DNA of 63,897 nt, filler included, from Sandaracinaceae bacterium (GTDB lineage: Bacteria; Myxococcota_A; Polyangia; Polyangiales; JADJQN01): assembly GCA_947483975.1 (NCBI GenBank). It is 6 parts of 6 records of this genome, joined end to end, with 100 filler letters (N's around TTAATTAATTAA, not from the genome) between each part and the next. Parts side by side here need not be neighbours in the genome. Positions count along the whole stretch, not along the records: positions 33,927 to 45,008 come from CANKOL010000153.1; 5 more parts are not named here. One strand, given 5' to 3'. Below are positions 11,279-56,256 of the stretch, piece by piece. The notes beneath the pieces are model-generated. The model was not told the origin of the DNA, ran no database searches, and was given only the letters and a program-made list of their open reading frames with translations. Both the position numbers and the translations under genes were made by a program. Numbering within the stretch: position 1 is the stretch's first letter; every line of letters begins with the position of its first letter.

Positions 11279-11378
11279 NNNNNNNNNNNNNNNNNNNNNN
11301 NNNNNNNNNNNNNNNNNNNNNNTTAATTAATTAANNNNNNNNNNNNNNNNNNNNNNNNNNNNNNNNNNNNNNNNNNNN
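11279..11378. other. Artificial contig spacer
   Basis: 100 nt of N with a central TTAATTAATTAA (stops in all frames). Confidence 0.99.
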
Positions 11379-12510: not shown

Positions 12511-14513
12511 GCGGCTTCGACGACGTCCTCGAGGACGACGGCACCGGGCTCTGGCGCTGGTGCGAGCAGACGGATGTGCTCGAGTGGTCACCGGCGATGT
12601 TCGCGCTGCACGGGCGTCCGCCCGTGGCGGGCGCGCCCGCGCTCGACGACTGGCTCCCTCAGGTCCGCGCGAGTCAGCACGCCGGCGACGGCGTAGGCGA
12701 GTTCGCGTCGCTCATCCTCGACGGCGAGCAAGGCTGCGTCACGCGCACGGAGCTGATCGTGCTGTGCGCGGACGGCATCGAGCGACACGCGGCGAGCACC
12801 GTGCGCGTGCGCTGCGCGACGCCGGGTGCGCGCGAGGTCGTCGGCACGATGCGCCCGATCTTCTCGACGCCGCGGCTGAGCGTCGAGCACGCGCTCAAGG
12901 AGAGCCGCGCGCACGTCGAGCGCGTGCGCACAGCCGAGTCTCTCCGCACGCAGACGCAGGAGCTCGAGGCGGCGCAGACGCTCGCGAACGTCGGGACCTG
13001 GGTGTTCAACACCGAGACCGGCGCGATGCGCTGGTCGGAGGAGATGTTCCGCATCCACGGGCTCTCGCCGGAGACGTTCGTGCCGACGGTCGCCTCGGCC
13101 GCGACCGTGATCGTCGCCGAGGACCGCGAGCTCGTCGAGCGCGCGAACAAGTCGCTCCGCACCAAGCCGCGCATCGGGCCCTACAACTACCGCGTGCGCC
13201 TGCCCTCCGGCGAGGTCCGGCACATGGTCGGCGCCGCGCGGCTGATCCGGAACAGCGACGGGCTCGGCGTGCGCATCCTCGGCACCGCGCTCGACGTGAC
13301 CTCGCGGGTCGAGCTCGAGGCGATGCTGCTGCACGCGCAGAAGCTCGAGGGGCTCGGCCGGCTCGCGGGCGGCGTCGCGCACGACTTCAACAACGCGCTG
13401 ACGGCGATCCTCGCGAACGCCGACGCCGCGCTGCTCGATGGCGCGAGCGGCGTGGAGGAGGAGCTGCGCGAGATCACGCACGCGGCGCTGCACGCGAGCG
13501 AGCTGACGCGGCAGCTGCTCACCTTCGCGCGGCGCGACGTCGCGCGGGCGCAGCGCATCGCGCCGAACGACATCGTCGCGTCGCTCTCTCGCACGCTCGG
13601 GCGCCTCGTCGGCGAGGACGTGAAGGTCGCCATCCGCTACGGCACGCCGTCCGCGACCGTGCTCGCGGATCCGGGTCGGCTCGAGCAGGTCGTGCTCAAC
13701 CTGGTGTTGAACGCCCGCGACGCGATGCCGGGCGGCGGCGCCCTCACGATCGAGACCTCGGTGGTCGACCTCGACGCGGCGCACGTCGCGCGGCACGTCG
13801 AGGCCAGCCGCGGTCGGCATGTGCGCCTCGACGTCAGCGACACCGGCTCGGGGATGAGCGAGGAGACGAAGAGCCGCCTCTTCGAGCCGTTCTTCACGAC
13901 GAAGGCTTCGGGCGTCGGCACCGGCCTCGGGCTCGCGACGTCCTACGGCATCGTCCGGCAGGCCGGCGGGCACCTCACCGTCGAGAGCCATGAGGGCGTC
14001 GGCTCGACGTTCTCGGTGATCTTGCCCGTCGCCTCGGAGGAGGCGGTGTCGCTCGCCACGGCCCCGCGGGCGCGGGCGCGCAAGGGCGGGAACGAGACGA
14101 TCCTCGTCGCGGAGGACGACCTCGGCGTGCGTCGAGTGCTGCTGCGCACGCTGCGCACGCTCGGGTACACCGTCCTCGAGGCGGTCGATGGGCTGGAGGC
14201 GGTCGAGCGCGCCCGCACGCATGACGGGCCGATTCATCTGCTGCTGAGCGACGTGATCATGCCGCAGATGCGCGGCCCCGACGCCGCGCGCGCGGTCCGC
14301 GAGCTCCGCCCGAGCATTCAGGTGCTCTTCATCACGGGCTACGCGGGTGAGTACGGCACCGCCGTCTGGAGCGAGGGGCCCGTGCTCGGCAAGCCGTTCA
14401 CGCCGGACGCCCTCGCGAGCCGCGTTCGGGAGTTGCTCGACGGGGAGGGCGCGCTCGACGTCGGCGCGGCGCTCGACTCCGACCTCAAGAACGACGACGC
14501 CCCGCCGACCTGA
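12507..14513 (+). CDS. PAS-PAS-HisKA-HATPase-REC hybrid histidine kinase (CckA-like architecture)
   Basis: ATGA overlap with the upstream gene; GRLAGGVAHDFNN, NLVLNARDAM, DTGSGM, FEPFFTTK, GTGLGL; receiver EDD..LLSDVIMP..KPF. Confidence 0.93.
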   Translation: MSGFDDVLEDDGTGLWRWCEQTDVLEWSPAMFALHGRPPVAGAPALDDWLPQVRASQHAGDGVGEFASLILDGEQGCVTRTELIVLCADGIERHAASTVRVRCATPGAREVVGTMRPIFSTPRLSVEHALKESRAHVERVRTAESLRTQTQELEAAQTLANVGTWVFNTETGAMRWSEEMFRIHGLSPETFVPTVASAATVIVAEDRELVERANKSLRTKPRIGPYNYRVRLPSGEVRHMVGAARLIRNSDGLGVRILGTALDVTSRVELEAMLLHAQKLEGLGRLAGGVAHDFNNALTAILANADAALLDGASGVEEELREITHAALHASELTRQLLTFARRDVARAQRIAPNDIVASLSRTLGRLVGEDVKVAIRYGTPSATVLADPGRLEQVVLNLVLNARDAMPGGGALTIETSVVDLDAAHVARHVEASRGRHVRLDVSDTGSGMSEETKSRLFEPFFTTKASGVGTGLGLATSYGIVRQAGGHLTVESHEGVGSTFSVILPVASEEAVSLATAPRARARKGGNETILVAEDDLGVRRVLLRTLRTLGYTVLEAVDGLEAVERARTHDGPIHLLLSDVIMPQMRGPDAARAVRELRPSIQVLFITGYAGEYGTAVWSEGPVLGKPFTPDALASRVRELLDGEGALDVGAALDSDLKNDDAPPT

Positions 14514-14544
14514 GGTCAGCGGGGCGCAGTTCGAGTGGGCTTTG

Positions 14545-14575
14545 GCGTGCGGCTGGCCGAGGCCACGCCGCACGC
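14545..14575. terminator. GC hairpin between convergent genes
   Basis: GCGTGCGGC-TGGCC-GA-GGCCA-C-GCCGCACGC. Confidence 0.4.
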
Positions 14576-14589
14576 TTCAGCGAGGCGCG

Positions 14590-17500
14590 TCAGATACCGA
14601 AGCCGTACTCCCAGCTGAGGCGGCGGACGACGTTGACGTTGTCCATGTAGCGCGCGAGGTCAGCGGTCGAGCCCGCCGTGAGGAGCGCCTGCGCGTGCAG
14701 GAGCATGTTCGCGCCGACGCCCTTCTCGACGCCACCGACCATGCGCGAGACCGCGACGTAGGTGAGGCCGCTCGACGGGTCGAGGAACGTGACGGTCGGA
14801 CCAGCGAACGTCACGCCTTCGGCGCCGCCGAGGACGGAGATGCGCGAGTCGTTCATGTACGTCTGGTCGAAGGTCTGCGGGATGAGCGCCATGCCGAGCA
14901 CGGTCGCGTAGAGCTGGATGGAGAACGACGCGCCCGGATCGATCGGGTTGCCCGGGGCGCTGTTGTTCGCCAGCTCGAGGGGGGTCGGGTAGGTGAGCGG
15001 TCCACCGCGGACTGCGCCGACGCGCGGGCCGATCGTGCTCCAGTCGTCCGACAGGAGGCCGCGGAAGAAGCCGTTCATCGAGGGCGCGAACGTCGTGTAG
15101 TAGCTGAGCTGGTACTGGCGGACGTCCGCCGAGGTGTCACGACCGATGAAGTGCGTCTCGGGGTCCGTGAGGGCCTGGAGGGCGACGACCTTGTCGTAGA
15201 AGTAGCCAGCGCGCTCGACCTGGTCGAACCAGAAGTAGCCGGCGTCGAAGTTCCAGGTCGTCTCGATGTAGCGACCGTCGGGGACGCCGATCGTCGTGCG
15301 GCCAGTGCCGGGGAGCAGCGCGGTGCTGCCGTCGGGGCGGGTGCCCGCGCCGTAGTCGCCGGGCTCGGGAGCCGCGATCACGCGCGTGAACATCGCGTAG
15401 CCGACGCCGACGCCGAGCGTGTACGCGCCCATGCCGTGCTCGTCGGTCCAGTAGGGGTCCGTGTCCGTGACGCCGAAGACGTCCGTGATGATCGGGCGGT
15501 AGAGCGCGTAGATCTGGTTCGCGTACTGCAGCTTCGTGAAGTAGCGGCTGTAGATGCGGTCGACGTACGACTCGGGGTTGAACCCGACGCGCTGCCGGCG
15601 GAACGCGTTGAAGATGTAGTAGTTCCAGTACGTGTCCGCCTGGTTCTGCATCGTCTCGTAGACGTCCGCGCCAGCGTCGTAGCGCAGGCAGTCGGGGCCG
15701 AGGTCCGCCTGCTCGTCCGAGCAGAACAGGTACGGAACGGTCGGGCGGCCCTGCGCGTCGACGACCTTCGTCTCGATGCCGGAGCCAGCGAGGGTCGCGT
15801 CAGCGGCGAGCGAGGTGTAGGGGACGTCTGCGCGACGCTCGAGGCCGGCGATGCCGCCGAGGAGGCCGGGGATGTCCGTGTAGTTGTACGCCGAGAGCGG
15901 GCCACCGAAGGCCGCGTCACGCGTGAGCGTCGCGGGCCAGCCGTAGGTCGAGAAGGCGTCGTACCAGATCATCTCGTCGGGGTTGGTGACGCCGTCGAAG
16001 ACCTCGACGAGGTCGGCGTAGCCCATCTTGATCGCGGCGCGGTCGTAGTGACCGATGCCGTTCGCGTCGGTGACGACGAAGTTGTTGCCGTAGTCCATGA
16101 CGGTCGAGTACTGCGCCTCGCGCTGACGGCCGTTGATCTCGGCCTCCGTCATCGGGTCCCACGCGCGGGGGCGCATGTTGCCGTCGTCGCGCAGGGTCCA
16201 GTATTGGGGGCCGTAGTTCACGGAGTCGAACGAGCCGCTGAAGTTGTGGCGGAGGCCGAGCGTGTGACCGACCTCGTGCGTGGTGACCGCGTCGAAGATC
16301 GGGTGACGCAGCATCGAGCGGACTGCCTGCTGGTCGATCGCGCCGGTGCCGTCGATGACCGAGTAGTCGTGGCCGTACCAGGACACGACGCCCGTGCCGC
16401 TCGTGATCGCGGCCTTGATCTCGCGCGCGAGGCCGAGCATGCCGTCGTCGGCGAACTCGGTGCCGAGCACGCAGCCGTTGGCCTGGAGGCGCTGGCGGGC
16501 GGCGTCGAGGGCGCGCATCTGCGCGACGTTCATGTTGCCGCGGAGCGGGGAGGCCGCCGCGAGCGTGGAGTCGTCCACCGCGAGCGCCGGGTCGATGCCC
16601 GCGCCGGCGATGAGGTCACGCGTCGTCAGCTGCCGCTCGATGCTGCTGCCGTCGAGGCCGCCGAGGAGGCCCTGACCGCGGTTGTCGTTGCGCCCGAAGA
16701 CGCCCGCGCGGGTGAGGCGCGCGCGGCTCTGGTCGACGCTCGCGAGGAGCGCGGCCGGGGTCGAGGGACCGGCGTGTGCCGCGCCGACGATGGGCGCGAG
16801 GCGCGAACCGAAGTTCATCGCCGCGTTGATGTCGGCGGCGTTCGAGCCGTCGATCGGGATGATGTGGTCGTCCGCGCTGCGGCCCGACTCGAGCGAGCCG
16901 GGAGCGGCCATGCGCTCGACCCACGCGCTGACGTTCTGCCCGCTCGTGATGGTGTCGGTGCCGATGTCGCCGTTGAGCAGGGCGACGATGTCACGCGCGA
17001 AGGTCGAGAGCGTCTCGATGCCCGCGCCGTAGATGAACGCGTTGCCTTCGATGATCTCGCCGGTCTCCGGGTCGGCGGCCGAGGGGCCGTAGCCGAGCGG
17101 GGACGAGCGGTGCGGGTCATTGACCCAGCCGATCATCGAGTAGCGGAGGTCGCCGATCTCGGCGGTCGTGCCCTCGGTGCCGCAAGACGCGGGGTCGCCC
17201 GCGCGGACGGGGCTGTGGCAGAGCACGAAGACGTTCGCGCCGTCGGAGCGCGTGCGCTCGCTGACGCAGGAGCCGGCGTCGCCGCCGTTGGCCAGACACT
17301 CTTGCTCGCGGGCCGAGGCGACGGTGTCGACGAAGGCCGAGTTCCACTGCTCGGTGAGGTGCGTCGCGTCGTCCTCGAGGTCGGCCGGGAAGTTGGTCGA
17401 CAGGAAGTACGGGATCTGACGGACCGTGCGGTCACGGAACGGGATGGTGCAGGCGCCGGTCGGCGTCAGGTGCGCGCGGGCGTAGTCCATGTCGCAGACG

Positions 17501-22574: not shown

Positions 22575-22674
22575 NNNNNNNNNNNNNNNNNNNNNNNNNN
22601 NNNNNNNNNNNNNNNNNNTTAATTAATTAANNNNNNNNNNNNNNNNNNNNNNNNNNNNNNNNNNNNNNNNNNNN
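22575..22674. other. Artificial contig spacer
   Basis: N run with TTAATTAATTAA. Confidence 0.99.
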
Positions 22675-33826: not shown

Positions 33827-33926
33827 NNNNNNNNNNNNNNNNNNNNNNNNNNNNNNNNNNNNNNNNNNNNTTAATTAATTAANNNNNNNNNNNNNNNNNN
33901 NNNNNNNNNNNNNNNNNNNNNNNNNN
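33827..33926. other. Artificial contig spacer
   Basis: N run with TTAATTAATTAA. Confidence 0.99.
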
Positions 33927-34327
33927 CCCGCGGCGGTGCAGGCGTCCTCGAGGGGATAGCCCGGGAACCACGTCGCGGCGTCGGCGACGACGAGCCTGAC
34001 GGTCGAGTCCTCCTCTGAGACGAACAGGCGCAGCGAGCGCGCGCCGTCGAGGTCGCAGGGCACGAAGCGCGTGTGCGCGCGCAGTCCAAAGAGTCCATCG
34101 CGGAACGTGAAGGCCATCTCACCCTCGGGCGCAGGTCCGGGCGTCGCCTGGACGGCGCGCTGATTCTCCGCCTCGATGCGGTCGACGACCTCGCCGCGGT
34201 GGATCGCCACGGCGCGCGGCGCGCTGACGCCGAGCCGAACCCGCCCGCCCCCGACGTCGACCACGGTGATCTCGATGTCGTGACCGATCACGATTCGTTC
34301 CCCCGCGCGGCGTGTGAAGGTCAGCAT
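33927..34327 (-). CDS. csrA: CsrA fused in frame to a FliW-like domain; 3' end truncated by the contig end
   Basis: MLTFTRRAGERIVIG..VRLGVSAP..IHRGE..EAEN (CsrA, with R44 and N55), continuing without a stop into FTFRDGLFGL..RF..SEEDSTVRLVVAD..WFPGY (FliW-like). Confidence 0.85.
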
Positions 34328-35211
34328 CAGCCGCCCGAGTTGACGAGGCCCCTGAACGGGAGCTTCGAGGCGACGGAGACGGCTGCGTCGAGGGCGGTCT
34401 GCGCGTTCGCGAGGTTCGAGTACGCGCGATAGGGGTCGATCTCGACGAGCTGCGCGCGGCTGGTGGCTGCGGTGTCTTGCGCCACCTGAGCGCCCGCGCG
34501 CGCGCCCTCGAAGGCGAGCATCTGCGAGCCCAACTCCGCGCGGGCGTCGTTGATCTGCTGGAACGAGGCGTCGATGCCGGTGAGGCTCGCCCGCACGTTC
34601 GTGATGTTGTTGGCGTCGAGCGCCGTCGCGAGGTTGTCCAAGGTGGCGAGGATGTCGGTGCCGCTGCCCGCGCCGAACGTCGTGCCGCCGGGCACGTTGA
34701 TCGGGAGGTGCAGATGCGGCGCGACCTCGAGCCTGGGCACGGAGTTGTCGCCGGTGTAGGCGCCGGTCACCGGGTCGAACGGCGGGGCGCTGTCGAGGTA
34801 ACCGCCGAAGACGTACTGGCCCTTGACCTGGGTGTTCCCGAGGCTCGCGATGTCGGACCGGAGCCCACGCACCTCGTAGGCGACGGCGGCGCGGTCGGAG
34901 GCCGAGTACGTGCCGTTCGACATCTGGACCGCGAGCTCGCGGGCCCGCGTGAGCGCATCGCTGACGCCGCCGAGGGCGCCCTCGGCGCCTGTCGTCAGCG
35001 CCAGCCCGTGGTCGGCCGTGCGCTCACTCGCCTGCGCGGTCGCCTGGCGCGCGGTCTCACGACGGGCGAGCGCGAACGCGACCGGGTCGTCCGAGGGCTT
35101 CTCGACGCGCATGCCGCTCGACGCGACGGACGAGGCCGTCGAAGCGCGGTCTCGTGCACGCTCGATGGAGCGCAGGGCCTGATCTTGGAGCATTCCGTCA
35201 GATACACGCAT
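34327..35211 (-). CDS. flgL: Flagellar hook-associated protein 3
   Basis: MRVSD..SSGMRVEKPSDDP, RARELAVQMSNGT, GQYVFGG; directly after flgK. Confidence 0.9.
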   Translation of the reverse strand: MRVSDGMLQDQALRSIERARDRASTASSVASSGMRVEKPSDDPVAFALARRETARQATAQASERTADHGLALTTGAEGALGGVSDALTRARELAVQMSNGTYSASDRAAVAYEVRGLRSDIASLGNTQVKGQYVFGGYLDSAPPFDPVTGAYTGDNSVPRLEVAPHLHLPINVPGGTTFGAGSGTDILATLDNLATALDANNITNVRASLTGIDASFQQINDARAELGSQMLAFEGARAGAQVAQDTAATSRAQLVEIDPYRAYSNLANAQTALDAAVSVASKLPFRGLVNSGG

Positions 35212-35213
35212 GG

Positions 35214-36599
35214 CTAACCTCGCAGCGCGAGTAGGCTGGACAGCATTTCGTCGGCAACCTGGACGACCTTGAGCGACGCTTGGTAGGCGCGCTGATAGCG
35301 CGTCAGGTTCATCAGCTCCTCATCGGCTGAGACACCCGAGATCGAGGCGCGCAGGGACTCGACCTGAACCTTCGCGTCGTCGGTGTGAGTGCGGTCGCCG
35401 AACGCGCTCTGGATCGCGGTCCCGACCTCGGCGCCGGCGTTGCCGAACTCCTCGCTCGCCGTCCGCGTGCCCGCCGAGGCGATGCTCGTCGTCGAGAGCG
35501 CCATGAGCGCGAGCGCGTTGCGGTTGTCACCCGGCAGCGCGACGGCGGACTGCGCGGCGGCGAGCTTGCGAGGCTGACCGGCGATCGACGCGGACAACGA
35601 CATCGACTGGGCTGCGCCCGTGGGCGTCGCCGAGATCGTGAAGAGCGGGGTGCCTGTGCCAGCGTCGAGATCGACACCGGCGGCGTGCGCGGTGTTGTAA
35701 GCAGTCGCGACGTCGAAGGCGAGCTGGTCGAGGTGCGTCGCGGCGTTCGTGATCGCGCCATCGCGCGCGGCGACGAGACCGCCGATGGTGCCGCCGCTCC
35801 CATAGCGAGTGACGTCCGTGGCGACGCCCGCCTCGATCGCGGTCACGCGCGTGTCGCCGGTGCCGGGATCGGGGGACGCAGTCAGCAGATGCGCCTTGCC
35901 GTCGCCGGAGACGAGCGCCGTGCGGCCCGCGAGCAGGAGCGAGATCTGCCCGTCCGCCTGCGGCATCACGGTCACGGGGATCTGCGTCGAGACCTCGCGG
36001 ACGAGCTGGTCCCGCTGGTCACGCAGGTCAGCCGCCTCGCGACCGTCGACCTCCGAGGCGGAGATCTGTCGGCCGAGCGCGGCGATCTGCGTGAGGCGCT
36101 GGTTGATCGAGCGGACCTCGGCGGTCAGGCGCCCGTTGACGTCGGCGCGCGCCTGCGCGACCTGGGCGCCAGCGCTCGCAAAGGAGCGCGCGAGCGCGTC
36201 CGCGGCGCCGAGGGCGGCCGTGCGGGGCGCGACCTCGGCGGGGTGGGCCGCGACGTCGGCGAGGGCCGCCTGGAAGTTGTCGAGCTGAGTACCGACGCCG
36301 CCGTCGATGAAGATCTGGTCGAGCGAGGTCAGCGCGTCCGAGCGGGCGGACGCCTCGCCTGCGGAGCTACGCACACCGAGCAAGCGCTTCTCGACGAACG
36401 GGTCGATCGTGCGCTTGGCGTTGAGCGCCTGCACGCCATTGCCGCCCGCGGGCGCAGGGCCAAGTGGCACGAGGGTCGCCACGCGGCGCGTGTAGCCCTC
36501 GGTCGCCACGTTCGACGCCCCCTGGGACGCGACGTTCGCGCCGAAGGTCCCCGCGGCCATGCCGCTGGCACCCAGGTTCAGGAGGCTCATCACACTCAT
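35214..36599 (-). CDS. flgK: Flagellar hook-associated protein 1
   Basis: NVATEGYTRR, DLRDQRDQLV, GDNRNALAL, SGVSADEELMNLTRYQRAYQAS. Confidence 0.93.
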   Translation of the reverse strand: MSVMSLLNLGASGMAAGTFGANVASQGASNVATEGYTRRVATLVPLGPAPAGGNGVQALNAKRTIDPFVEKRLLGVRSSAGEASARSDALTSLDQIFIDGGVGTQLDNFQAALADVAAHPAEVAPRTAALGAADALARSFASAGAQVAQARADVNGRLTAEVRSINQRLTQIAALGRQISASEVDGREAADLRDQRDQLVREVSTQIPVTVMPQADGQISLLLAGRTALVSGDGKAHLLTASPDPGTGDTRVTAIEAGVATDVTRYGSGGTIGGLVAARDGAITNAATHLDQLAFDVATAYNTAHAAGVDLDAGTGTPLFTISATPTGAAQSMSLSASIAGQPRKLAAAQSAVALPGDNRNALALMALSTTSIASAGTRTASEEFGNAGAEVGTAIQSAFGDRTHTDDAKVQVESLRASISGVSADEELMNLTRYQRAYQASLKVVQVADEMLSSLLALRG

Positions 36600-36952
36600 A
36601 GCGCGCCCCGACGTCTCGGCGCGACCGAGGCAGAGCACTGTCCAGCCGCCCCGTAGGTGGGCTCTTCTTCGCCGACGAGCGAGCGGAGGCACGCGACGAG
36701 GTGCCGCAAAAGCAGGAGATTCTCTCGGGCGGTGTCCGCGAGCCGCCCGGCACCGGGCGGAAACTGACCATCGTGCGCGCCGAGCACCGCCGCGAGGGCG
36801 AGCTGCTTCTCGGCCTGGATCGCGAGGAGCTGATCGACGTTCGCCGCGAGCGCCGCTGCCCGCTCCGCATCGAGCAAGCCAGCGAGCCGAGCGACCGCGT
36901 CCGTGCGGTCCTCAGTCGGTGGCATCGCTGCAGGGTTGGCGGCGGCAAACAT
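36596..36952 (-). CDS. flgN: Probable FlgN chaperone
   Basis: Position between flgM and flgK; helical LDAERAAL..EKQ..N..LL with a TY tail. Confidence 0.65.
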   Translation of the reverse strand: MFAAANPAAMPPTEDRTDAVARLAGLLDAERAAALAANVDQLLAIQAEKQLALAAVLGAHDGQFPPGAGRLADTARENLLLLRHLVACLRSLVGEEEPTYGAAGQCSASVAPRRRGAL

Positions 36953-36954
36953 GG

Positions 36955-37209
36955 CTACTGCTCCTCTCGAAGCATCGCGTCGGCGATCTTCTCGTGGTCG
37001 ACCTTGAAGGTCCCCTTGCTGAGAGAATCGCGGAGGCGGGCCACCTTCTCGGCGTCGGCGACCTCAGGAGCGCGCGCGTCCGACAAGGCCTTCGCCTGGC
37101 CCGAGATGCGAACCTGCTCGGCCGCACCTGCGGGACGCGGTTCCGTGCCCTGCGAGACGCCGCGCGACTCGTAGGTGGGGTTCGTGCGGGATAGCGGAGT
37201 GACCTTCAT
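36955..37209 (-). CDS. flgM: Anti-sigma28 factor
   Basis: VRISGQAK..EKVARLRDSLSKGTFKVDHEKIADAML. Confidence 0.9.
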   Translation of the reverse strand: MKVTPLSRTNPTYESRGVSQGTEPRPAGAAEQVRISGQAKALSDARAPEVADAEKVARLRDSLSKGTFKVDHEKIADAMLREEQ

Positions 37210-37278: not shown

Positions 37279-38427
37279 TCAACGGCGATCCAGCGCACTG
37301 CGGGGAGCACGACCGCTGGTCGGAGTTTCAGGGCCTTCGCCCGCCGCGGGCCGGGCTAGCTCGAGCACTTCGATCTGGCCGAGACCGTTGCGCGCCCCGG
37401 GCGTCGGATGACCCGCGCGGGACCAGACGCGGCCCTCGAGGTGCTGGGCGCCGGTCGCGCGGGCCTCCCAGCCGTCGAAGACGATGCGCTGGACGTGGCC
37501 CTCCGCGTCGTAGTCGACCGTGTGGATGCGCTCGACGACGGCCATATGACCGGCGTGCCCGTCCGACCCGCTGCCCGCGAGCACGAAGGCCCGGTCGCCG
37601 CGGACGCCCGACGCGACCAGCGGCGCCTCGCCCTCGCCCGTGACGACGCGCGCCCAGTCCTCGCGCAAACGGCCATCCCCGGCGTCGCGGACGACGCCAT
37701 CGGGGTTCGGGTAGCCCCAGCCCTGTGCGCGGGCTTGGACCGGGACGGCGTACCCGGCGCGGCGGGCGGCCTCGAGCGCGAAGAGGTTGCACTTGTAGAA
37801 GCCCTCGAAGCCGTTCGCGTCGCGCACGTTGAACGCCGCGACGCCGCCGTCGGCGGTGGGCGTCGAGAAGGTGCTCGCGAGGTCCTGAGGGGTGAGCGCC
37901 CCGGCGCGGGACCAATGCTGCGCGGCGTCTCCTGCGCTCATCTGCGCGGCGGCGACCGAGAGCGCGCCCGACGCGCCCGTGTACGTGGCGGCCGACGCGG
38001 AGGGCTGGCGCATCGCGGCAAAGCGCGCGGCGAGCGGCTCCGTGACCAGCGGCGAGAGGCCGCCGCCTCGGCCAGGCGTGATCATCGGCGCGCCGCCGAG
38101 CTGCGCTGGGTCGGCGCCGAGCGCTGGACCGATGACGCGCGCGAGGCCGATGCCGCCTCCATCCGCGAGGCGCTCCGCGAGGGTCTCGTCGAACATCGAC
38201 AGGTACTGCTGCGACGCGCCGGAGGCTTCCTCGCCGCCGGCGTCGGTCGTCTTGCGGAGCACCTGGATCATCTGCTGCAGGAGCACCGCCTCGAAGCGGC
38301 GCGCTGCCTTCACGGCGCCATCGGGCCCGTTGACGCCCACGCGGGCGCGCTGCGCGGCGAGCTCGGCGGCGCGGGTCGGGCCGTCGATCGCCGCCTCTTG
38401 GGCGCCCCGCGGCAGTACGGCGACCAT
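37279..38427 (-). CDS. flgJ: FlgJ rod-binding domain fused to a putative NlpC/P60/CHAP-like Cys-His domain
   Basis: AARRFEAVLLQQM..YLSMFDETLA..GGIGLA; C-terminal KCNLFA..AG and GHMAVV. Confidence 0.8.
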   Translation of the reverse strand: MVAVLPRGAQEAAIDGPTRAAELAAQRARVGVNGPDGAVKAARRFEAVLLQQMIQVLRKTTDAGGEEASGASQQYLSMFDETLAERLADGGGIGLARVIGPALGADPAQLGGAPMITPGRGGGLSPLVTEPLAARFAAMRQPSASAATYTGASGALSVAAAQMSAGDAAQHWSRAGALTPQDLASTFSTPTADGGVAAFNVRDANGFEGFYKCNLFALEAARRAGYAVPVQARAQGWGYPNPDGVVRDAGDGRLREDWARVVTGEGEAPLVASGVRGDRAFVLAGSGSDGHAGHMAVVERIHTVDYDAEGHVQRIVFDGWEARATGAQHLEGRVWSRAGHPTPGARNGLGQIEVLELARPAAGEGPETPTSGRAPRSALDRR

Positions 38428-38443
38428 CAGCGAGCCCCCGCGT

Positions 38444-39568
38444 TCATTGGGCCTCGATGCGGGCGCGCAGGGCGCCCGCGCTGCGCAGCGCTTGGAGGAT
38501 CGAGACGAGGTCGCGCGGCCTTGCGCCGAGCGCGTTCAGCGCGGCGACGACCTCTTGCAGCGAGGCCGTGTTGTTCACGTGAGCGACGGCGCCCGCCTGC
38601 GACTCGGCGTTGACCTGCGTCTGGTTGACCGTCGTCGTCGTACCGCCGGAGAGCGCGCCCGGCTGCGAGACGGCTTGCTGCTCCACGATCTCGACGGTGA
38701 GGTTGCCGTGCGCGACCGCCGCCTCGGAGATCCGCACGCCGGCGCCGAGCACGACCGTGCCCGTGCGCTCGTCGACGACGACGCGCGCGGTGGAGTCCGC
38801 CTCGACCTCGAGCAGAGATAGCTGCGCGACGAGCGCGACCGGACGCGTGCGGAACGCCTCCGGCACCGTGACCTTGACGAGCGCGTGGTCCACCGCCTGC
38901 GCGGTGCCCGCGCCGAGCGCCGTGTCGATCGCCTGCACGATGCGCTCGGCTGTGACGAAGGACGGCTCGCGCAATTGCAGAAAGATCCCGTTGGCGCCGA
39001 GCACGGGCGCGTCGACGCGCCGCTCGACGATCGCGCCGTCCGGCACGCGGCCCGACGTCGGGTGGTTCTGCTGCACGCTCGAGCCGTTGCCGCCCGACGC
39101 CGAGAACCCGCCGACGAGCACCGCGCCCTGCGCGACGGCGTAGACGCGGCGGTCCGCGCCGTAGAGCGGCGTCTGCAGGAGCACGCCGCCGAGCAGGCTC
39201 TTGGCGTTGCCGATCGACGCGACCGTGATGTCGACGCGCACGCCGGGCGTGGCCGCCGACGGAATCGAGGCCGTCACCATCACGGCGGCGGCGTTCCGCA
39301 TCTGGATGTTCTGAATCGTCTGGAGATCGACCGTCGCGCCGAGGCGCCGCAGCATCGCCGCCGTGCTCTGCACCGTGAAGCGGTCCGCGCCGCGGTCACC
39401 CGTCTGGTTGAGCCCGACGACGAGCCCGTAGCCGACGAGCTGGTTCGGGCGCACCCCGCCGACGTCGCAGAGGTCTTCGATGCGCGTCGCGCGCGCGGTC
39501 GACGCGCTCGCGAGCAGCGGCAAGGCGAGGAGCAGAGTCAGGAGCAGGCGCTGAGGCTTGAAGTGCAT
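38444..39568 (-). CDS. flgI: Flagellar P-ring protein
   Basis: RPNQLVGYGLVVGL.GD, NAAAVMVTA, ARVVVDERTGTVV, LQALRSAGAL. Confidence 0.96.
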   Translation of the reverse strand: MHFKPQRLLLTLLLALPLLASASTARATRIEDLCDVGGVRPNQLVGYGLVVGLNQTGDRGADRFTVQSTAAMLRRLGATVDLQTIQNIQMRNAAAVMVTASIPSAATPGVRVDITVASIGNAKSLLGGVLLQTPLYGADRRVYAVAQGAVLVGGFSASGGNGSSVQQNHPTSGRVPDGAIVERRVDAPVLGANGIFLQLREPSFVTAERIVQAIDTALGAGTAQAVDHALVKVTVPEAFRTRPVALVAQLSLLEVEADSTARVVVDERTGTVVLGAGVRISEAAVAHGNLTVEIVEQQAVSQPGALSGGTTTTVNQTQVNAESQAGAVAHVNNTASLQEVVAALNALGARPRDLVSILQALRSAGALRARIEAQ

Positions 39569-39578
39569 GGGGTTCGCC

Positions 39579-40283
39579 TCAGAAGGGGTTGATCGCGTCG
39601 AGCAGCTTGACCAGCCAGCCGCGCTCTTGGTTGTCGCTGAGGGCGCCGCGCCCGGTCAGCTCGATCTCCGCGTCGGCGACCAGGCTCGAGCGCACGGAGT
39701 TGTCGGGCTCGATGTCCTCGGGCCGGATGACGCCGCTGATGTAGATGTGGAGCTCCTCGTCGTTGACGAGCACGACCTTCGTCCCCTCGATGAAGAGGTC
39801 GCCGTTCGGCAGCGCTTGCTTCACGCGCACGGCGATGGCGGCGCGCACGCGGCTCTCTCGGCTCGTCGCGCCCGTCCCGTCGAAGTGCCGCTGGCTCATC
39901 AGCGACACGAGCTCCGACGGGTCGATGTCGGGATAGGCGCGCTGGAGCGCTGTGCCGAGCCCGAGCACGTTGCCGCCGAAGGACATGGACGAGTCGCGGT
40001 CGAGCGTCGTCGCGGCGTCGCCGCTCGCGTTCGCCGTCTCGTCGATGTTGATCGTCACGATGTCGCCGATGCGGTTCGCGCGGAAGTCTGCGAAGAGCCC
40101 GCGCCCGGCGTCGGGCCAGAGGGAGCCGCGGCTCGTCGCGCGCGGCGCCGTCGCGTACTCGTCGACGTTGTACGTCCGCGAGCGCGGCACATGAGGGTCG
40201 ATGTGCCGACCTCCGCCGCAGGCTGCGAGCGTCGGCACGAGCAGCGAGAAGGTCAGGAGCGTAGCGAGGCTTCTCTGGGTCAT
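39579..40283 (-). CDS. flgH: Flagellar L-ring lipoprotein
   Basis: Lipobox LAAC; GSLW, LFAD.RA..GDIVTI, LPNGDL.IEG, GVIRPEDI, C-terminal PF. Confidence 0.95.
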   Translation of the reverse strand: MTQRSLATLLTFSLLVPTLAACGGGRHIDPHVPRSRTYNVDEYATAPRATSRGSLWPDAGRGLFADFRANRIGDIVTINIDETANASGDAATTLDRDSSMSFGGNVLGLGTALQRAYPDIDPSELVSLMSQRHFDGTGATSRESRVRAAIAVRVKQALPNGDLFIEGTKVVLVNDEELHIYISGVIRPEDIEPDNSVRSSLVADAEIELTGRGALSDNQERGWLVKLLDAINPF

Positions 40284-41017
40284 GGACGTACCTCGACCGT
40301 GCCGGAGTCGACGACTCGACCTGTCAGCTGCACGCGCGTGTCGACGTTCGTCACGCGCACCTGATCGCCCCGACGCCCCGGCTGCGCGACGATCCCCGGG
40401 GCGGTCGCGCGCACCGCTCCGACGATGACGACGATCTGCACGCGGGCGCCCGCGGCGATGATCGGCGGCGGGCACACGACGCGCGCCGAGATGAGCACGC
40501 GGGTCTCCACGGCGCCCACGGTCACGACGACGGGCGCCGTGACGCGACCGCTCGCGCGCGGCGTCGTCCCGAGCGAGGCGACCGTCGGCGTGCCCGCGGG
40601 CAGCAGCAGCGAAGGCGGCGCGTCGAGCTCGGTGAGCTCACAAGGCGAGAGCGACGCCTCGACCGCCGGGCGCACGAGGCGCTCGACCGCGTCCTGGTCG
40701 AGCCGACTCGCCTCGCGGCTGACGCGCGTGGTGCGCGGAATATCGAGACCGCGCGCGTCTCTACCCGCGGCGACCAGCGCCCGGCGCACGTCCGTCGCGC
40801 GCACGACGCGCGTCCCGCCGGGGACCGGAGCCGCGCCGAGGTCGAGCGCGCCGAGGTCCGTTCCAGCCAGCGCCGGCAGCACCTCGGCGAGCGTGATGCG
40901 GTCCGCCGTCTGCTGCGCCGACGCGATGGCCGGCGCGAGCAGCGCGGCGCCGAGGAGCACGGCAGCGACGGCTGTCCAAGCGGCGTGGGTCCGAGCTGCG
41001 CGGAGGGCGTACTTCAT
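40280..41017 (-). CDS. flgA: Flagellar P-ring formation chaperone
   Basis: Signal peptide; C-terminal G.RV.I..G..GD.VRV.N..T...G.V; lies between flgG and flgH. Confidence 0.85.
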   Translation of the reverse strand: MKYALRAARTHAAWTAVAAVLLGAALLAPAIASAQQTADRITLAEVLPALAGTDLGALDLGAAPVPGGTRVVRATDVRRALVAAGRDARGLDIPRTTRVSREASRLDQDAVERLVRPAVEASLSPCELTELDAPPSLLLPAGTPTVASLGTTPRASGRVTAPVVVTVGAVETRVLISARVVCPPPIIAAGARVQIVVIVGAVRATAPGIVAQPGRRGDQVRVTNVDTRVQLTGRVVDSGTVEVRP

Positions 41018-41029
41018 GAGCCCTGCAGG

Positions 41030-41045
41030 AGCACGCTGCGTGCCA
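41030..41045 (-). promoter_or_regulatory. Candidate sigma54 promoter for flgA-H-I-J
   Basis: Minus strand TGGCACG-CAGC-GTGCT (GG-N10-GC). Confidence 0.55.
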
Positions 41046-41143
41046 GATCCTTTTGCCCGGATCCATGGGCTTTTTCGAGGGGGCGTGGGTCCCGCGTGTC
41101 GGAGCGCCGACGCTCGCGGCGGAACCCTGACGCCCCGCCGACG

Positions 41144-41926
41144 TCAGCGCTCCGTCGCCTTCTGCAGCATTTGGTCGGCCGCGCTGATGACGCGCTGGTT
41201 GATCTCGTAGGCGCGCTGGCTCGCGATGAGGTCCATCATCTCGGAGACGACCTCGACGTTCGAGCCCTCGAGGAAGCCCTGCGCGACGGTCCCGATGCCC
41301 TCTTCGCCCGGCGCCGCGACGGTCGCCGCGCCGCTCGCGGCGGTCTCGGTGAAGAGCGAACGCCCGGTCTGGAGCAGGCCCGCCGGGTTCGCGAACGTCG
41401 CGAGCTGGAGCTGCCCAACCTCGACGGTCTGCGCGCTCCCGGGCTGCGTCACGGAGATGGTGCCGTCTGGTGCGATGGTGATGCCCGTCGAGTCCGTCGG
41501 GATCTGAATCGCGGGCTCGACGGGATATCCGTCCACCGTCACGAGGCGCCCCTCGGCGTCCGTCTTGAGGTTCCCAGCGCGCGTGTAGGCGAGCGTTCCG
41601 TCCGGGCGCTGCACCTGGAAGAAGCCCTTGCCCTCGATCGCGAGGTCGAGCGGATTGCCACTCTGCTGCATCGTGCCCTGCTCGAAGATCGTCGAGGTCG
41701 CGACGGTGCGCGTCCCTTGGCCGATCTGCAGGCCCGTCGGCAGCTGCCCGCCGCCCGCGGTCTGCCCGCCTGGCTGCCGGAGCGTCTGATAGAGCAGGTC
41801 CTGAAACTCCGCCCGACTCCTGCGAAAGCCTGCGGTGTTGACGTTGGCGACGTTGTTGGCGACGACGTCGATGTGGAGCTGCTGGGCAGCCATTCCCGTA
41901 GCCGCGGTGTTGAGCGCTCGGAGCAT
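41144..41926 (-). CDS. flgG: Flagellar distal rod protein
   Basis: AATGMAAQQ..ANNVANVNTAGFRRSRAEFQDLLYQ, DLAIEGKGFF, GFLEGSNV. Confidence 0.97.
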   Translation of the reverse strand: MLRALNTAATGMAAQQLHIDVVANNVANVNTAGFRRSRAEFQDLLYQTLRQPGGQTAGGGQLPTGLQIGQGTRTVATSTIFEQGTMQQSGNPLDLAIEGKGFFQVQRPDGTLAYTRAGNLKTDAEGRLVTVDGYPVEPAIQIPTDSTGITIAPDGTISVTQPGSAQTVEVGQLQLATFANPAGLLQTGRSLFTETAASGAATVAAPGEEGIGTVAQGFLEGSNVEVVSEMMDLIASQRAYEINQRVISAADQMLQKATER

Positions 41927-42010
41927 GGGCGTCCTCTTGTTTTCTGTGAAAGTGCCGAAGAGAAGGGGAGTGAAAGCGGGGCGTCGAGATCAGGAGCTGG
42001 GGAGTGCGAA

Positions 42011-42751
42011 TCAGCCGCGAGAGCCGATGTCGCGCGCGGTACGGTTGTCGAGATCGGCAAACGTCTTGATCACGCGCTGGAACGAATCGAAGAGTCGATT
42101 GATCGTGATGAGCTCGTTGAGCCCCGAGATCGGGTTGACGTTCGACTGCTCGAGCGAGCCCTGCACGACCTCCGTGTTCGGAGACGCGGGCTGCGGAGCC
42201 GCGACGGTCATGAAGCGCGACTCGCCCTCTTTGCCGACCGTCGCCGGGTCCGCGAAGCTGACGATCCGGACGCGCCCGACGGGCTCGCCGTCCGCGCTGA
42301 CCGTCCCGTCGGGCCCCACCGTGACGTCCCGCGCGCCCGTGGGAATGCGGATGCGAGCGTTCGGGCCGCCCTCGGCCACGACCTCGATTCCGTCCGAGGT
42401 GCGGAGCACGCCATCAGCGCCCGGCGTGAACGAACCGGCGCGCGTGTAGCGCTCGCCCTGCGGCGCGGCGAGCACGAAGAAGCCGTCTCCGTTGAGCGCG
42501 AGATCGTAGGGATTGCCAGTCGTCGCGAGGGCCCCAGGGGCGGTATCCGTCGTGATTCGCTCGGCGACGACGTAGCGCATGGACGCCGGCTGCGCGGTGC
42601 GCGCGCCTGCCTGCGCGAGCGCCTCGTCGAAGGCGACGCGGTCGGCGCGAAAGCCGACGGTGTTCGCGTTCGCGACGTTGTTCGCCGTGACGTCGAGCGC
42701 GCGCTGTTGCGCGACCGCCCCGCTGAGCGCGCTGTAAATACCGTGCGACAT
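42011..42751 (-). CDS. flgF: Flagellar proximal rod protein
   Basis: IYSALSG..ANNVANANTVGF, TGNPYDLAL.GDGFF, YTRAGSF, QGSLEQSNV. Confidence 0.9.
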   Translation of the reverse strand: MSHGIYSALSGAVAQQRALDVTANNVANANTVGFRADRVAFDEALAQAGARTAQPASMRYVVAERITTDTAPGALATTGNPYDLALNGDGFFVLAAPQGERYTRAGSFTPGADGVLRTSDGIEVVAEGGPNARIRIPTGARDVTVGPDGTVSADGEPVGRVRIVSFADPATVGKEGESRFMTVAAPQPASPNTEVVQGSLEQSNVNPISGLNELITINRLFDSFQRVIKTFADLDNRTARDIGSRG

Positions 42752-45008: not shown

Positions 45009-45108
45009 NNNNNNNNNNNNNNNNNNNNNNNNNNNNNNNNNNNNNNNNNNNNTTAATTAATTAANNNNNNNNNNNNNNNNNNNNNNNNNNNNNNNNNNNN
45101 NNNNNNNN
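45009..45108. other. Artificial contig spacer
   Basis: N run with TTAATTAATTAA. Confidence 0.99.
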
Positions 45109-56156: not shown

Positions 56157-56256
56157 NNNNNNNNNNNNNNNNNNNNNNNNNNNNNNNNNNNNNNNNNNNN
56201 TTAATTAATTAANNNNNNNNNNNNNNNNNNNNNNNNNNNNNNNNNNNNNNNNNNNN
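56157..56256. other. Artificial contig spacer
   Basis: N run with TTAATTAATTAA. Confidence 0.99.

Follow-up and report, generated by a model that had tools for sequence, protein, structure and literature searches.

A csrA-fliW fusion gene at the end of a late flagellar operon in an uncultured freshwater myxobacterium

The DNA analysed here (the window) is a stretch of 63,897 nucleotides, filler included, composed of six contigs from the genome of an uncultured flagellated myxobacterium (Sandaracinaceae bacterium, assembly GCA_947483975.1). The contigs are joined artificially by N runs with a ttaattaattaa spacer at 11279-11378, 22575-22674, 33827-33926, 45009-45108, and 56157-56256, and adjacency across a joint does not reflect the genome. 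At its low-coordinate end, the fourth contig (33927-45008) carries a csrA::fliW gene on the minus strand that closes a late flagellar operon (flgM ... flgK-flgL-csrA::fliW). The upstream genes on the same strand were identified by Pfam matches and comprise those for a rod-binding FlgJ-like protein, flgI, flgH, flgG, and flgF (37282-42751), flgM for the anti-sigma-28 factor (36958-37209; FlgM, E 2.2e-12), flgK for hook-associated protein 1 (35217-36692; FlgK_D1, E 2.7e-55), and flgL for hook-associated protein 3 (34327-35211), whose 294-aa product matches both Flagellin_N and Flagellin_C. These matches place csrA::fliW beside flgK-flgL, where the initial annotation of this DNA described csrA and fliW as normally lying as separate genes. 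The stop codon of flgL and the start codon of csrA::fliW share one base (TGATG), an overlap that is also seen in locus L004, and csrA::fliW is always the last gene behind flgK-flgL in the clade of fused proteins to which the window belongs.

The csrA::fliW frame starts with an ATG at 34327 on the minus strand and is free of stops up to the contig end at 33927. The translated fragment (133 codons, 0 stops) reads MLTFTRR...IHRGEVVDRIEAENQRAVQATPGPAPEGEMAFTFRDGLFGL...WFPGYPLEDACTAA and consists of a complete CsrA domain, a linker of 13-14 residues, and FliW residues 1-61. The CsrA domain (residues 1-58; 34154-34327, minus strand) includes the RNA-binding beta core and the C-terminal helix with N55, and was assigned from Pfam, NCBIfam, structural alignment, and a predicted swap dimer. 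The linker (residues 59-72, VQATPGPAPEGEMA; 34112-34153, minus strand), as placed by alignments A1 and A3 and by HMM projection, takes the place of the tail of CsrA and of the T.RFG motif at the N terminus of FliW. FliW is represented by its first 61 residues (residues 73-133; 33929-34111, minus strand), which were assigned from a Pfam match below cut-off, 132/133 identity to the protein P0007, and the model of an orthologue. Since the ORF ends at the artificial joint (33827-33926), its truncation is real, in agreement with the earlier reading that the contig end cuts the gene about 60 aa into FliW. A FliW family search of the same genome matched only this fragment, and thus the missing 3' part lies on no other assembled contig visible to the search; the assembly is a fragmented bin of 524 contigs that is 81% complete.

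The domain assignment of the two halves differs in strength within the window. HMMER analysis of the 133-aa fragment, as had been proposed, matched Pfam CsrA (PF02599) over residues 1-52 with an E-value of 9.7e-22 and 77.1 bits (cut-off 27), and two NCBIfam equivalogs were also above cut-off (NF002469, 76.5 versus 73; TIGR00202, 71.9 versus 70.1). Residues L2, R6, R7, and R44, which we take to be the RNA-binding residues of CsrA, are all present in the translated protein. Pfam FliW (PF02623) was matched over residues 73-126, corresponding to profile positions 1-55 of 122, with an E-value of 0.0011 and 19.2 bits (cut-off 25), and NCBIfam FliW models were matched far under cut-off at E-values of 3e-5 and 3e-3. 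The Pfam score falls under the cut-off because the fragment stops about halfway through the domain; the full-length orthologues were all above it (10/10, 49.5-81.5 bits), and the FliW part proposed in the initial annotation is thus borne out in full-length relatives. Its further description of a complete CsrA domain with R44 and an EAEN motif containing N55, no stop codon afterwards, a TPGPAPEG linker, and FliW-like motifs beyond it was likewise reproduced in the translation. Among the residues of the CsrA-FliW contact the fragment displays N55 alone, as those on the FliW side lie beyond the cut.

That the two domains are encoded as one protein is practically certain. In a search of the own genome and 40 others of its order, 13 of the 41 matched the fragment, and 11 of these 13, the own genome included, have a single frame across both domains, so that close relatives are fused rather than split. 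The complete fused ORFs of these relatives measure 197-218 aa, and among the full-length orthologues of related genomes all 10 score above the Pfam cut-offs of the two domains. A word-based protein search returned 11 proteins, 10 of them with both Pfam domains, and P0007 (200 aa, 11 member sequences), which also has both, is identical to the window fragment at 132 of 133 positions. In a fragmented bin, and for a gene located at a contig end, one might suspect that a stop had been lost or that an indel or chimeric join had been introduced. Nevertheless, contigs from four other runs of four studies aligned to 33927-35300 with 0 inserted or missing letters, including the 34100-34170 interval where an indel or a miscalled stop had been considered, and single contigs from three studies cross the CsrA-linker-FliW junction (X4, 33927-34866; X6, 34002-34590; X2, 34089-35300). 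Eight of the 10 strain differences within the ORF are silent, which is the pattern of a translated frame; the other two, V59I and T62S, both fall in the linker, where together with a silent change at P65 they keep the frame. Together with the near-identical full-length protein and the 10 fused orthologues, these data leave a negligible chance for an assembly or sequencing artefact. FliW is thus not a separate diffusible protein here: the frame is a single ORF, each fused relative has exactly one FliW match, namely the fused one, and family searches of the own genome (81% complete) detected no second FliW and no other CsrA match at a meaningful E-value. DNA nearly identical to 33927-35300 was also present in lake-water and freshwater metagenome runs of several studies, and nine runs contained at least half of the sampled words; the single RNA run among those listed contained 0.04 of them.

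The fusion is the rarer arrangement in our sample of the phylum. We scanned 251 genomes, each at least 80% complete, and 89 of them matched. A fused match was found in 5 genomes, all of the window's order, and a separate FliW match in 48, about 41 of which have it directly 3' of csrA on the same strand; the remaining matching genomes have CsrA alone. The split csrA-then-fliW pair is therefore the common state in this sample, which explains the domain order of the fusion. In genome G032 (locus L015), a member of the same order, the pair also lies behind flgL; csrA encodes 74 aa and ends with TAG, and fliW starts 11 nt further on in a different frame and retains MLVEGTRFGRIEF.... A locus search of species-representative genomes, with an alignment of the 8 closer rows as query, recovered 11 full-fusion loci, all labelled Polyangiales, Polyangia, Sandaracinaceae, Polyangiaceae, or Myxococcota, and a further 22 loci with the CsrA part alone.

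Fused proteins were also found in larger protein databases. A profile of the fused protein gave 41 matches at E <= 1e-30 against 1.84 billion representatives. When 161 proteins were classified with domain HMMs built from alignment A1, 62 had the order CsrA-FliW (52 of the best 150 representatives), 5 had FliW-CsrA, and 1 had CsrA-CsrA-FliW. Two clusters in the ESM Atlas (68 and 89 members) are named by the two Pfam domains alone; few of their members have a record, and the phylum recorded most often is Thermodesulfobacteriota. The initial annotation knew of no characterised example, and our literature search by title and abstract, in which the core papers were not all covered, agrees in that no publication on a natural CsrA-FliW fusion was found; the architecture is nonetheless already present in databases, unnamed and without comment. 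In the accessible text of a 2026 Geobacter paper the word fusion refers to tags and reporters only, and the passages found in a 2026 NAR survey of CsrA variation do not mention a natural fusion. New here are the contig check of the window, the split arrangement of the phylum, the comparison of fusions with and without the N-terminal motif, the residue-level conservation of the interface, and the sites in the flagellin leaders.

A quick-search, unrooted tree of 104 FliW-domain rows, with a sample biased to fused proteins, places all 9 included loci of fused relatives and the proteins of the window's genus in one starred clade of 45 rows, of which 42 are fused and 3 are short and probably truncated. 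The sister clade, also starred, comprises four further fused proteins together with the split FliWs of G032 and G035. A grouping of all 67 fused rows was rejected (AU p 0.0006), indicating that the fusion state changed more than once; gains and losses are not separable with this biased sample and unrooted tree. It is somewhat probable that the fusion arose from a csrA-then-fliW pair and that, in the window's clade, the N-terminal motif of FliW either disappeared or decayed into the linker.

The length of the join between CsrA and FliW, projected from domain HMMs in 70 proteins, ranges from 13 to 58 residues with a median of 16 (two short rows with meaningless values are left out of the range). 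In the window's clade it is 13-22 residues, and in the window's species 13. The FliW hairpin motif T.RFG.iE is absent from this clade, as alignment A3 bears out for the loss suspected from the window alone, and is kept in split relatives and in other fused forms. These motif-bearing fused proteins include P0039, P0044, P0048, P0052, P0053, and P0076, the last with the motif directly after the CsrA helix. In the model of the orthologue P0002 the CsrA helix ends at residue 57 and the first residue structurally aligned to FliW is 62, leaving about 4 residues between them. Residues 62-72 of the model overlie FliW residues 6 onward, with a pLDDT of only about 64 in that segment, and it is possible on this overlay that the linker is a degraded remnant of the FliW hairpin. 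The linkers are rich in Pro, Gly, and Ala, and the model is least confident there (block 61-70, pLDDT 64). An in-frame ATG (M71) preceded by GAGGGTGAG is located in the linker of the window (34115-34125, minus strand), and an internal start there that yields free FliW is conceivable; the Met is not conserved, as the closest relatives already have T, P, V, or Q in that column.

The AlphaFold2 model of P0002, an orthologue from the same genus, has a mean pLDDT of 84.6 and a pTM of 0.74. Its residues 62-190 align with residues 6-139 of the FliW structure 5dmb_A (Z 14.3, rmsd 2.3 A, 127 aligned), Foldseek assigns FliW with a probability of 1.0 (TM 0.69-0.73 depending on the target), and residues 1-57 align with CsrA chains at a Z of about 5 and an rmsd of 2.5-2.7. 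A dimer check predicted a CsrA-type pair with a score of 0.63, compared with 0.00 for the best of 3 controls; this mark is reached by 20 of 30 proteins solved as one-chain pairs and by 1 of 23 solved as single chains. Contact agreement among the homodimer runs was at least 97% and the pLDDT of the partner at least 83. The predicted interface is formed by residues 1-48 of both copies, as in the CsrA strand-swap dimer, and as CsrA dimers have already been solved, this outcome may only reflect likeness to them. The dimer model has no confident contact for residues beyond 48 and thus speaks neither for docking of FliW in cis nor for docking in trans.

Conservation of the contact residues can be compared with the Bacillus system. 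In the part of the relevant report available to us (bioRxiv 10.1101/2020.07.02.184341), FliW residues P26, F58, N108, A111, and Q124 surround CsrA N55 and are required for binding, and a B. subtilis salt bridge between K123 and D41 is required for inhibition after binding. In the HMMER alignment, P0002 residues N158, A161, G172, V173, and Q174 correspond to N108, A111, G122, K123, and Q124 of 5dmb_A. Among 67 full-length fused proteins (P0002 numbering), N55, the counterpart of Bacillus CsrA N55, is present in 59, and the counterparts of FliW N108, A111, and Q124 are kept as N158 in 66, A161 in 57, and Q174 in 66; P162, for which no Bacillus equivalent is given, is invariant (67/67). On the CsrA side, the residues at Bacillus positions R44, R6, and L2 are conserved in 66, 63, and 62 of the 67 proteins, position 7 is R or K in 62, and E46, again with no Bacillus equivalent given, is present in all 67. 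The salt-bridge pair is variable, with V, R, K, or A at position 173 and P, A, or S at position 41. Conservation of the N55/Q174 contact and of the RNA-binding residues points to selection on both the FliW-CsrA contact and the RNA-binding face, which argues, as far as sequence can, that FliW would still dock on CsrA and that CsrA would still bind RNA at times.

Flagellin contact can be considered in the same manner. In the accessible part of an HDX study of the Bacillus system (PMC6070490), flagellin protects FliW residues 22-28 and 95-115, a region that overlaps the residues near N55 and is kept in the fusion. The same source reports protection of FliW residues 3-11, which is the site of the T.RFG motif missing in the window's clade. 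With this flagellin-protected motif lost, flagellin binding may be weakened or changed in the clade.

The flagellin mRNA leader is the likely target of the fused CsrA, judging from its sequence. The own genome has one flagellin gene, on a different contig, which is 75% identical to the flagellin of locus L016, the locus that encodes P0002 and in which fliS, fliD, and flagellin come after the fused gene on the opposite strand. We compiled 22 distinct flagellin leaders from 12 fusion-bearing genomes, and 19 of them, that of the own genome included, have CUCA-N-GGA-N-GAG at the Shine-Dalgarno position. The motif is not rare, with 40 matches across the own genome that lie mostly within genes, and the leader evidence is therefore supportive, not decisive. 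A second, upstream GGA occurs in a hairpin loop (stem of at least 4 bp) in 16 of the 22 leaders, with stem sequences that vary between genomes; dinucleotide shuffles gave a mean of 8.3 and a maximum of 14 of 22 in 300 trials. An upstream GGA hairpin was rejected as a strict rule, given the lenient criterion and this high background, and the leader of the own genome has a GGA at -45 that is outside any hairpin by the same criterion. A sigma-28-like pattern, T(C/T)AA-N(13-18)-CCGA(A/T), was observed in 9 of the 22 leaders of 120 nt (L016, L049, L051-L072), where it precedes the flagellin ATG by 63-91 nt, and in several others the CCGAA part is visible at the margin of the extracted sequence; at 9 of 22, a promoter of this TCAAG-N-CCGAA type deserves no more than a mention. 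Several fusion-bearing relatives have multiple flagellin matches (four in G008, three in G092, and two each in G024, G037, G028, G269, and G003), and these genes (loci L051-L072) are partly in tandem, each with its own GGA-bearing leader. A response-regulator/GGDEF gene lies directly upstream of the flagellin gene of L016 on the other strand (13597-14919).

The fusion shares its two families with the Hag-FliW-CsrA switch of Bacillus subtilis and with the Geobacillus thermodenitrificans structure 5DMB, conserving the equivalents of N55 and of N108/A111/Q124, and the linkage to flgK-flgL is likewise common to it and the B. subtilis system. The Shine-Dalgarno GGA and the frequent second GGA in an upstream hairpin resemble the two sites of B. 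subtilis hag, as these are given in the accessible portions of two reports (PMC13443453, PMC6070490). In contrast, one polypeptide replaces two, the N-terminal motif of FliW is absent, and the K123-D41 pair is not conserved. Gene order also differs, being CsrA-then-FliW here, whereas Bacillus fliW is upstream of csrA and overlaps it, according to the available text of a further study (PMC6529632). The same text describes about one FliW per CsrA dimer in B. subtilis, with one FliW sufficient for inhibition and the ratio set by translational coupling, whereas the fusion fixes two FliW per CsrA dimer. The split csrA-fliW pairs of Myxococcota, such as that of G032 (L015), have the same order behind flgL and, in the sister clade that contains G032 and G035, the FliW domains that are the closest relatives; unlike the fusion, the G032 pair keeps a csrA stop, a fliW 11 nt on in another frame, and MLVEGTRFGRIEF... 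in FliW. The motif-bearing metagenome fusions listed above have the same architecture as the window, but the T.RFG hairpin is present in them, their joins span 16 to 58 residues, and they fall outside the window's clade on the FliW tree. CesT of enteropathogenic E. coli (CesT-CsrA, 5Z38) and the small-RNA sponges CsrB/RsmZ are CsrA antagonists as well, but they are unrelated to FliW and, as described in the source material available to us, none is covalently joined to CsrA.

Taken as a whole, the observations are best explained by an operon-terminal CsrA-FliW fusion of about 200 residues that acts as a tethered partner switch, an explanation that we favour with slightly more belief than doubt. 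That it works as a tethered, flagellin-responsive repressor of flagellin translation is a proposal for which belief and doubt are evenly balanced. The protein would dimerise via the CsrA core, resulting in a fixed ratio of two FliW per CsrA dimer. By default, each FliW would dock in cis on its own CsrA helix (N55 against Q174, the equivalent of Q124), so that RNA binding would be off and flagellin would be translated. Unexported flagellin that builds up would then engage the FliW surface overlapping the CsrA contact, and the freed CsrA core would bind the GGA sites at the Shine-Dalgarno sequence of the flagellin mRNA and stop translation. The docking in cis, the release triggered by flagellin, and the target are steps that we infer. 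The one-component, autoinhibited flagellin sensor suggested in the initial annotation would likewise accord with the conserved N55/Q124 pair and RNA-binding residues. Tethering should strongly favour the CsrA-bound state, and release by flagellin is thus not obvious. The loss of T.RFG in a flagellin-protected segment and the poor conservation of the K123-D41 pair may also complicate a tethered switch, as may, by analogy with Bacillus, the enforcement of two FliW where one per CsrA dimer suffices.

It is possible, though unlikely, that the protein is instead a permanent cis complex in which FliW never leaves CsrA and serves as a fixed flagellin-binding adaptor that carries CsrA to free or nascent flagellin, in co-translational feedback or mRNA placement, or tunes the affinity for RNA with no switching between on and off states. 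The mere 4 or so residues between the end of the CsrA helix (57) and the FliW-aligned residue 62 would suit such a complex, as would the loss of one flagellin-contact element, and the Campylobacter CsrA-FliW network also governs flagellin mRNA localisation, according to the part of that report available (PMC4894983). However, N55 and the Q124 equivalent, the two residues behind reversible binding in Bacillus, persist in 59 and 66 of the 67 proteins, and a permanent inhibitor would leave the conserved RNA-binding residues pointless. Less probable still is a polypeptide split during or after synthesis, by internal initiation or linker proteolysis, with two proteins in the cell. The M71 codon after GAGGGTGAG and the low-confidence, Pro/Gly/Ala-rich linkers (61-70, pLDDT 64) would allow it, but M71 is already missing from the closest relatives, the frame stays free of stops in at least 10 genomes of the order and in 52 of the best 150 database representatives, and the strain differences in the linker preserve the frame. 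We consider it similarly improbable that the fused FliW senses a ligand other than flagellin or that the protein governs a wider regulon. Loss of the flagellin-protected motif and the repeated change of fusion state on the FliW tree (AU p 0.0006) are in keeping with such a shift, and the constant last position behind flgK-flgL in the window's clade and the GGA sites in the flagellin leaders speak against it.

Going beyond a tethered copy of the Bacillus circuit, we tentatively suggest, with doubt outweighing belief, that the fusion is a single-chain allosteric switch. As FliW cannot leave, flagellin would have to shift the position of the domain on the CsrA dimer, and a requirement for two flagellins per dimer would make the response steeper. 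In the window's clade, the N-terminal flagellin-contact motif might then have been traded for a minimal linker to balance the much stronger binding in cis. How FliW turns CsrA off without competing for the RNA site is debated between binding and an allosteric step (bioRxiv 10.1101/2020.07.02.184341, in the part available). The Bacillus switch also relies on precise stoichiometry, and a natural protein in which both the ratio and the closeness of the two partners are fixed offers a ready system for testing the action of FliW; variants with and without the flagellin-protected N-terminal motif exist for comparison. If the allosteric reading is true, the fusion would be a natural experiment that separates the binding and allosteric steps of FliW, which are unresolved in Bacillus. 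Another potential use of the fusion is as a compact translational repressor that responds to a protein. Cultured relatives of freshwater Polyangia glide rather than swim, and csrA::fliW documents flagellar regulation in uncultured members of the group.

Other repeated architectures were present among the best database matches (P0035-P0161), which include 65 tandem CsrA-CsrA proteins, 4 four-fold CsrA repeats, 11 tandem FliW-FliW proteins, and 5 FliW-CsrA proteins. These single-chain CsrA dimers and doubled FliW domains may be further ways of fixing the stoichiometry.
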